A stretch of DNA of 7,722 nt from a virus (IMGVR_UViG_2541047896_000002), one strand, 5' to 3'; positions 2,313-2,582 are shown, counted from the stretch's first letter. Notes: generated from the letters alone by a model not told the origin. Numbers and translations: made by a program.

Positions 2313-2582
2313 ATGTCAGATGAGGTAATCATCAGGACAAAATATTGCAATCCGAATATGAGCTTTGGCAGCCCTGACGGATGCGATGAAGTCACTTTGA
2401 AATTACCGAAGTCAGAAGTTGTTAAATTACAGTCTTCGGTAGTTTCTCAGGATAAGCCTGTTCCCGATATTGATTATTCAGTCGCGGCGCAATTCTGGGG
2501 GCTGGCTTTTACGACAACCTTTTTCCTGTGGCTCTTTGCAAAGGGAATAGGTGAAATTCTTAAACACGTAAGAAATGCATAA
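2313..2582 (+). CDS. Hypothetical small membrane protein (positional pVII/pIX analogue, but atypical)
   Basis: 89-aa ORF between ssb and the major coat gene, with a hydrophilic N-terminal ~55 aa and a C-terminal hydrophobic helix (AAQFWGLAFTTTFFLWLFAKGIG). No alternative small ORFs were found in the other frames of this interval. Confidence 0.5.
   Translation: MSDEVIIRTKYCNPNMSFGSPDGCDEVTLKLPKSEVVKLQSSVVSQDKPVPDIDYSVAAQFWGLAFTTTFFLWLFAKGIGEILKHVRNA

Follow-up and report, generated by a model that had tools for sequence, protein, structure and literature searches.

The window, i.e. the complete stretch of 7,722 nucleotides analyzed here, represents a single unit of a filamentous (inovirus) prophage found in E. 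coli and its relatives, and its genes and other features are collected in the Table. Copies of it at 97% identity were found in two complete E. coli genomes. In the E. coli G5 locus, the genes at 132-2716 occur again at 7801-10385, and this repeat offset of 7,669 bp indicates tandem prophage copies; two site-specific integrase genes follow the tandem array. No close cultured phage was found for the window, either by megablast against a phage collection or by comparison of the gene I product, by which the nearest records are uncultivated "Dulem virus" and "Inovirus D_HF" genomes with 44-56% identity. The sole megablast match to a cultured phage is a 64-bp segment (486-549) that shares 87% identity with the major intergenic region of If1, and may be an origin or packaging element. 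At its very start (2-12, plus strand) the window reads GGTGCGCATAA, identical to the arm of E. coli dif that binds XerC. Some 80 nt away (85-95, minus strand) there is an inverted copy with two mismatches, a match within chance expectation. Integration may be XerCD-mediated at dif, possibly via a CTXphi-like folded attP.

Table. Features of the window and, in the last five lines, small ORFs between the coat gene and the gIII-like gene of reference inoviruses.
Feature	Sequence	Position	Strand	Remarks
Small divergent gene upstream of gene II, probable regulator	Window	102-368	-	phrog_37184 (unknown function)
Small divergent gene upstream of gene II, probable regulator	Window	561-749	-	
Gene II-like replication gene	Window	873-1988	+	
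Gene V-like ssDNA-binding protein	Window	2005-2295	+	96 aa; phrog_8473, E 1e-41
Other ORF of at least 20 aa in 2296-2593	Window	2297-2395	-	
Other ORF of at least 20 aa in 2296-2593	Window	2470-2550	+	
Other ORF of at least 20 aa in 2296-2593	Window	2478-2567	-	
ORF89, candidate pIX-like minor coat protein with N-terminal extension	Window	2313-2582	+	phrog_3679
ORF89 codons 1-32, variable N-terminal beta-hairpin	Window	2313-2408	+	Strands 4-12 and 24-32; two AF2 models
ORF89 codons 33-54, short helix (33-40/43), then acidic low-confidence linker	Window	2409-2474	+	
ORF89 codons 55-89, long, nearly invariant helix	Window	2475-2579	+	YSVAAQFWGLAFTTTFFLWLFAKGIGEILKHVRNA; pLDDT 86-97
Major coat gene	Window	2594-2842	+	82 aa precursor; phrog_2186, E 2e-26; RefSeq: major capsid protein
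Terminator-like GC hairpin, then T-rich run, downstream of coat gene	Window	2854-2873	+	
ORF27, hydrophobic micro-gene	Window	2881-2964	+	No RefSeq annotation in E. coli G5
Gene III-like adsorption protein	Window	2928-4790	+	phrog_3942, E 6e-196
DUF2523 gene VI-like gene	Window	4801-5088	+	
Zot/gene I-like gene	Window	5092-6126	+	
Secretin/gene IV-like gene	Window	6123-7385	+	
Coat/gIII-interval small ORF	Pf1 (L073)	1073-1150		Region annotated as intergenic
Coat/gIII-interval small ORF	Vf33 (L074)	1454-1546		
Coat/gIII-interval small ORF	RSM1 (L076)	2168-2251		
Coat/gIII-interval small ORF	Pseudomonas phage 36-2 (L070)	4037-4111		
Coat/gIII-interval small ORF	phiAFP1 (L072)	2558-2653		

The gene V-like gene is the end of the replication module. 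The GC content is 0.32-0.38 around genes II and V and increases to 0.52-0.57 around genes I and IV, which is consistent with replication and structural modules of different origin. The start of gene III was taken from the RefSeq annotation, and yields the signal peptide MRLGG...VHA. The sequence of the hairpin downstream of the coat gene is identical or nearly so in all relatives.

ORF89, situated between the gene V-like gene and the major coat gene, runs from ATG to TAA, and its residues 12-26 are CNPNMSFGSPDGCDE. The identical frame is called a hypothetical protein in the E. coli G5 RefSeq record. A weak Shine-Dalgarno-like AAGG is found at 2299-2302 (plus strand), 10 nt upstream of the ATG, whereas the major coat gene is preceded by AAGGAG at a spacing of 5 nt, a difference that would fit a low-copy and a high-copy product, respectively. 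ORF89 is a real coding gene, conserved and under purifying selection. Its pN/pS against close relatives is 0-0.19, with the N-terminal and C-terminal halves alike, and together with a full-length match to the PHROG 3679 HMM (E 9.1e-33, 113 bits, residues 1-89 on positions 2-88 of the 88 in the profile) and 15 homologous clusters this makes it more than a chance ORF. PHROG 3679 is a phage protein family of unknown function. Pfam and NCBIfam hold no family for ORF89, ORF27 or the Pf phage proteins PA0722 and PfsE.

An earlier note, made from the sequence, described this locus as an 89-aa ORF with a hydrophilic, Cys-containing N-terminal part followed by a single helix, and both translation and hydropathy bear this out, the sole hydrophobic 19-residue window being residues 57-75. 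The note also saw no second small ORF in the slot between gene V and the coat gene, which likewise stands: just three other ORFs of at least 20 aa occur there (see Table), all of them non-hydrophobic and overlapping ORF89. Internal initiation giving a pVII-sized peptide was ruled out, as no ATG or GTG follows in frame after codon 16 and purifying selection acts on the N-terminal codons.

Two AF2 models, built from 12 and 51 sequences with a mean pLDDT of 67 and 80.9, respectively, gave the same fold both times, i.e. a hairpin (4-12/24-32), a short helix (33-40) and, beyond a floppy linker, a long helix (55-88). The N-domain is modeled with moderate confidence (pLDDT 70-81). Cys12 (2346-2348) and Cys24 (2382-2384) flank the base of a variable loop, residues 13-23, and the linker closes with a conserved PDIDY motif. 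The long helix holds the putative membrane-spanning or capsid-packing segment and a basic tail; the net charge is -3 for residues 1-57 and +2 for the tail (77-89). A Foldseek search with the first model against PDB and BFVD returned nothing below E 0.3, as is to be expected for a hairpin and one helix.

The 15 homologous clusters in Enterobacteriaceae are distributed over E. coli, Citrobacter, Salmonella and Enterobacter. Among these, residues ~45-89 are nearly invariant and residues 1-30 vary around two conserved cysteines; nearly all of the 33 invariant columns of the enterobacterial alignment fall within codons 55-89. The Salmonella-type N-terminal part is unrelated to that of ORF89 and has a single Cys. 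By searching 1.84 billion representative proteins with the family profile, we found a wider family of 55 clusters (50% identity, E < 1e-3) with members of 51-242 aa. They share the C-terminal motif (I/F)DY..A..FWG.AF....LWL.SKGIG.ILK.VRNA, while their N-terminal parts differ, and the length variation is confined to the latter. Two matches, P0027 (632 aa) and P0029 (1287 aa), were dismissed as artefacts, these being tandem-repeat or Calx-beta proteins in which 9-10 weak stretches resembling the N-terminal part were summed. A pattern scan of genome contigs with one of the alignments (A1) gave 57 stretches, none of which was confirmed by tblastn.

At least two Cys precede the helix in 48 of 51 family members, and in all 51 the tail is net positive (about +2) and the part before the helix net negative (about -1.6). 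Signal-peptide-like N-termini are found only in the five longest members (140-242 aa). From this charge bias, the Cys pattern and the distribution of signal peptides, we infer that the N-terminal part would be periplasmic and the tail cytoplasmic throughout the family. Such an N-out/C-in topology is that of inovirus coat proteins prior to assembly.

In all genomic contexts read, the ORF89-family gene is situated directly upstream of the major coat gene in an inovirus module. The upstream neighbor is an ssDNA-binding or Rep gene, and the modules hold DUF2523, Zot and secretin genes. ORF89 remains with gVIII-gIII-gVI-gI-gIV where the replication module has been exchanged for one with other gene II and gene V types. 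Homology with relatives begins at 2309-2311, at 2398 (codon ~29; in L012/L013) or at 2426 (codon ~38; in Salmonella), so that two of the three mosaic junctions (2398 and 2426) fall within the part of ORF89 that codes for its N-terminus. An If1-like E. coli prophage (L002) has a very similar gene V product, but its DNA homology to the window ends at ~2295, and past the gene V stop it carries canonical pVII and pIX of 32 aa. Because the homology stops at the end of gene V and is followed by canonical pVII/pIX, ORF89 belongs to the structural module, and it is the positional replacement of pVII and pIX.

A second small gene, ORF27, codes for a hydrophobic protein of 27 aa (MAQYLFDFMCFLWGLLCAWAVIQGLES), which contains neither Lys nor Arg, and overlaps the start of gene III. 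In the Salmonella relatives, four of six substitutions in ORF27 are synonymous, while five of the six alter the overlapping gene III product, and in another relative with 89% DNA identity (L009) the peptide is preserved despite many synonymous changes. Homologues in the same position were found in L018, L022, L025, Dulem virus 53 and phiAFP1. The DNA pattern for WGLL(C/S)AWAVI occurs in 44 viral contigs. In 43 of these it is preceded, at a distance of 300-500 nt, by an ORF89-family gene, the coat gene being situated between the two; the remaining contig is truncated at its end. This co-occurrence makes the ORF89 and ORF27 families a fixed pair that brackets the coat gene. Since ORF27 is short, very hydrophobic and highly conserved, and has no coat-like tail, we infer that it is a pVII-like partner of ORF89. 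The earlier note had counted separate pVII/pIX-like small ORFs as evidence against its reading. One such ORF does exist in ORF27, but it is single and lies outside the slot. It complements the 89-aa gene instead of replacing it.

In one tandem prophage copy in L013 (3175-3334), a single-T deletion shifts the frame of the ORF27 homologue, which may be due to an error in sequencing or to decay of this copy. In reference inoviruses, too, the interval from the coat gene to the gIII-like gene holds unannotated hydrophobic ORFs of 24-31 codons (last five lines of the Table), and VGJphi annotates the equivalent as ORF29. Out of these small ORFs, only those of RSM1 and phiAFP1 scored above or near the null with the ORF27 profile, which did not detect VGJphi ORF29. 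The micro-gene is absent from the annotation of the E. coli G5 RefSeq, Pf1, Vf33, RSM1, phiAFP1 and Pseudomonas phage 36-2 records. A likeness between ORF27 and PfsE seen by eye (M..YL..F..GL..AW..I.GL) was dropped, as it had no HMM or hhalign support: the ORF27 HMM gave no match to PfsE at E <= 10, the hhalign score of the ORF27 profile against PfsE (PA0721) was 14.4, with a null 95th percentile of 12.9 and maximum of 19.6, and ORF27 has AWAV, not YAWGW.

The C-terminal tail of ORF89 resembles the tail of pVIII of the same phage (GVRWILRMVRGA). When the C-terminal 12 residues of family member and cognate coat protein were compared in 13 lineages, the mean BLOSUM62 score was 19.7, as compared to 8.2 +/- 1.8 for permuted pairs, and none of 20,000 permutations reached the observed score (p < 5e-5). 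In seven of the 13 lineages the cognate coat protein is the best tail match. Examples of such pairs (ORF89 family/coat) are GEILKHVRNA/RWILRMVRGA in this phage, GRILRFFR/GRYILGFFKRV in Dulem virus 53, AMRKARN/AMRKA in Pf phage and WGYQTVINF/WGYNKIIGWF in phiAFP1. As a control, pIX was scored against the pVIII tail of its own phage, giving 12 in M13, 16 in If1 and 22 in IKe, while pVII gave -4 to -1. A coat-like C-terminal tail is thus a simple sequence criterion that separates pIX-like from pVII-like proteins in known phages, and ORF89 has the one sequence property that tells pIX from pVII. The match could also have causes other than co-packing, namely gene conversion between neighbors, a shared need in membrane insertion, or recognition by pI.

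Cryo-EM of f1 has shown an inner bundle of pVII, around which layer 1 is made up of pIX helices in alternation with pVIII (PMC10175506). The C-termini point to the DNA, and displayed proteins are tolerated on the N-termini only (PMC10175506), so the extension of ORF89 sits where extensions are tolerated.

We consider it somewhat probable that ORF89 is a pIX-like minor virion protein of the leading tip, the one to emerge first, which would take over the job of Ff pIX while carrying a natural N-terminal extension. It is most likely the enlarged counterpart of M13 pIX. The protein would insert into the inner membrane without a signal peptide, with its acidic N-terminal ~55 residues in the periplasm, where Cys12 and Cys24 would staple a small beta-hairpin, and with its basic tail (KGIGEILKHVRNA) in the cytoplasm. 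At the initiation of assembly, several copies of ORF89 together with the 27-aa ORF27 product would cap the packaging end of the ssDNA, the latter as a pVII-like buried helix. The C-terminal helix of ORF89 would pack beside the first coat protein layers with its tail toward the DNA, which would explain why this tail copies that of the coat protein, and the N-terminal domain would be presented outward at the distal tip. The elaborated virion-tip protein proposed in the earlier note is hence the best-supported reading, drawn from the module linkage, the charge bias in 51 out of 51 members and the tail match. What speaks against it is that signal-peptide-free export of a 55-residue N-terminal tail with six basic residues is demanding, and that no sequence similarity to Ff pVII or pIX was detected. 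As the Salmonella-type N-terminal parts have one Cys, the disulfide hairpin would furthermore not be universal.

The module linkage and the tail match bear also on other explanations. If ORF89 were a non-structural morphogenesis factor of the inner membrane, which loads or orients the coat protein or bridges to the pI ATPase and stays in the cell, its fixed position in the structural/assembly operon would be expected, as would the tail match if the protein bound pVIII in the membrane or imitated it there. Extra non-structural assembly proteins are indeed used by integrative filamentous phages, e.g. PSB15 in phiLf (10.1101/2024.03.19.585677). The same tail property is, however, found in the bona fide virion protein pIX and is absent in pVII; a variable periplasmic domain, either Cys-stapled or exported by a signal peptide, is hard to explain for a membrane chaperone; and ORF27 would be left as the only protein of the module to build the leading tip. 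We therefore regard such a factor as unlikely. A host-directed accessory membrane protein, acting in superinfection exclusion or surface modification in the manner of PfsE, seems rather improbable, even though the N-terminal part is variable and recombining, as expected against changing host targets. Accessory genes are usually patchy in their distribution, whereas none of the related structural modules examined lacks the ORF89 family, which invariably occupies the same place, and the most conserved part of the family is the helix and the tail that tracks the coat protein. The model for this explanation is PfsE (PA0721) itself, an inner-membrane protein of 30 aa from the same gene block, which blocks type IV pili via PilC (PMC8764522). 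By analogy with what the literature proposes for PfsE/gVII, ORF89 might conceivably have a dual role.

The earlier note also suggested a fused protein. For a descent of ORF89 from merged pVII and pIX ancestors, the only arguments are the position of the gene and the lack of two small ORFs in the interval. Such a fusion can be discarded almost entirely. There is a single hydrophobic segment, the N-terminal part being a hydrophilic beta-hairpin plus a short helix, and the N-terminal part is all that differs in the shorter family members (64-66 aa and, in phiAFP1, a 49-codon frame). A separate small hydrophobic gene is moreover present in the form of ORF27. No similarity to pVII or pIX profiles was found: the hhalign scores of the ORF89 family against the Ff pVII and pIX profiles were all in the range of shuffles, e.g. 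8.4 for M13 pIX and 14.2 for the pIX of the If1-like prophage, with a shuffle median near 10 and maximum of 18-22. Pfam PF19978 (Inovirus_G7P_2) gave no hit at E <= 10 on ORF89, on its C-terminal 45 aa or on ORF27, while the positive controls, pVII of M13 and of the If1-like prophage, were matched at E 1.3e-21 and 4.3e-18, respectively.

Many integrative filamentous phages are without pVII and pIX homologues according to recent preprints. Returning to ORF89 as a pIX-like tip protein, we tentatively extend this reading, as a possible if rather doubtful generalization, to many non-Ff inoviruses. Their 'round' leading tip would then be more than a bare cap and consist of a pIX-like protein displaying exchangeable N-terminal domains, together with a mostly unannotated micro-protein of 21-33 aa encoded in the coat/gene III interval. 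The smallest displayed domains would be 20-residue disulfide hairpins, and the largest would comprise ~100-200 residues and be exported by a signal peptide. They might serve to open the secretin gate, to bind to a surface of the host or the environment, or to escape recognition. A function of its own for the displayed domain would make the corresponding gene segment a recombination hot spot. The ORF89 and ORF27 families are in any case a concrete candidate leading-tip pair for one large non-Ff clade. If the N-terminal domain is displayed, this would be a natural pIX display and a guide for engineering of the distal tip. For the specialist, three points are of interest: the rule of matching tails, the constant company of a micro-gene that mostly goes unannotated, and N-terminal domains that can be exchanged.

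Among the known systems, pIX of the Ff phages and their relatives (M13, f1, If1, IKe) is like ORF89 in that its gene adjoins gene VIII upstream, in having a single helix and no signal peptide, and in a C-terminal tail that resembles the cognate pVIII tail. It differs in being only 32-33 aa long, with no N-terminal domain, and in that its virion location is proven, while that of ORF89 is predicted. Ff pIX is present at the leading tip in about five copies and is needed for assembly to start. The pVII gene is found in the same gene block, but the size and hydrophobicity of pVII resemble those of ORF27 and not ORF89, and pVII tails are unlike pVIII tails, in contrast to the ORF89 family.

The gene order of VGJphi and Vf33 is that of the window, i.e. 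a gV-like gene, an ORF of ~81 aa, the coat gene, a hydrophobic ORF of ~29 aa and a gIII-like gene, although these two phages, unlike the window, have no secretin gene of their own. Both ORF81 and ORF29 of VGJphi are labeled putative minor capsid proteins (NC_004736), and ORF81 has the same build as ORF89, with a Cys-loop-Cys N-terminal part, one helix and a basic tail. A scan of all six-frame ORFs of reference inoviruses with the family HMM picked the ORF directly upstream of the coat gene in Pseudomonas phage 36-2 (75 aa; E 0.0017), Vf33 (gp3/Vpf81, the top match among the six-frame ORFs; E 0.0093), phiAFP1 (0.013), a Pf phage (PA0722 homologue; 0.021) and SMA9 (0.28), and the proteins picked share this build. 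In VGJphi, ORF81 was the second-ranked match (E 0.059). All of these E-values are those of small databases. It is the agreement of position across the reference genomes that constitutes the argument, and the HMM links to the Vf33, VGJphi and SMA9 proteins (E 0.009 to 0.28, small databases) are weak. The best match in phiAFP1 is the 49-codon frame, unannotated and situated at 2218-2367 between the ssDNA-binding gene and the 44-aa coat gene. This frame would make a family member of nearly minimal size, its N-terminal domain being all but absent. In RSM1, the frame of ORF7 (46 aa) extends upstream (1562-1870) through a family-typical, hairpin-like Cys-x17-Cys-SGY segment, and ORF7 may start earlier than annotated.

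The Pf phages offer a similar picture. Pf1 orf83 and Pf4 PA0722 are 83 aa long and, as ORF89, encoded directly upstream of the major coat gene; they have a C-x12-C N-terminal part, an FD motif before the helix, and the tail AMRKARN, which copies the CoaB tail AMRKA. In hhalign, our broad profile (A3) matched the PA0722 alignment (A4) with a probability of 76% and a score of 31.6, as compared to a maximum of 22.5 in 200 column shuffles. The identity is only 23% over 60 columns, and the narrow enterobacterial profile (A2) scores 17, which is no detection. The small partner in Pf, PA0721/PfsE (30 aa), lies upstream of the 83-aa gene, and in the Pf1 record orf30 and orf83 precede the coat gene, while ORF27 instead comes after it. 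In the literature PA0721 is listed as gVII/PfsE and PA0722 as gIX, by analogy (PMC12328805, PMC13502202). The minor-coat assignments of both PA0722 and ORF81 were made from position alone, and we found no localization experiment in the literature for ORF81, ORF29, orf83 or PA0722.

The contrast drawn in the earlier note with canonical minor coat proteins of ~30 aa thus holds against Ff-type phages but not against VGJphi, Vf33, Pseudomonas phage 36-2 and the Pf phages, whose records limit its validity to the Ff type. An ORF of ~75-85 aa in the pVII/pIX slot is ordinary for non-Ff inoviruses, and unusual only in comparison to Ff. The ORF89-type gene, experimentally uncharacterized, was known already in filamentous phages of Vibrio and Pseudomonas, and the E. 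coli gene is a further member.
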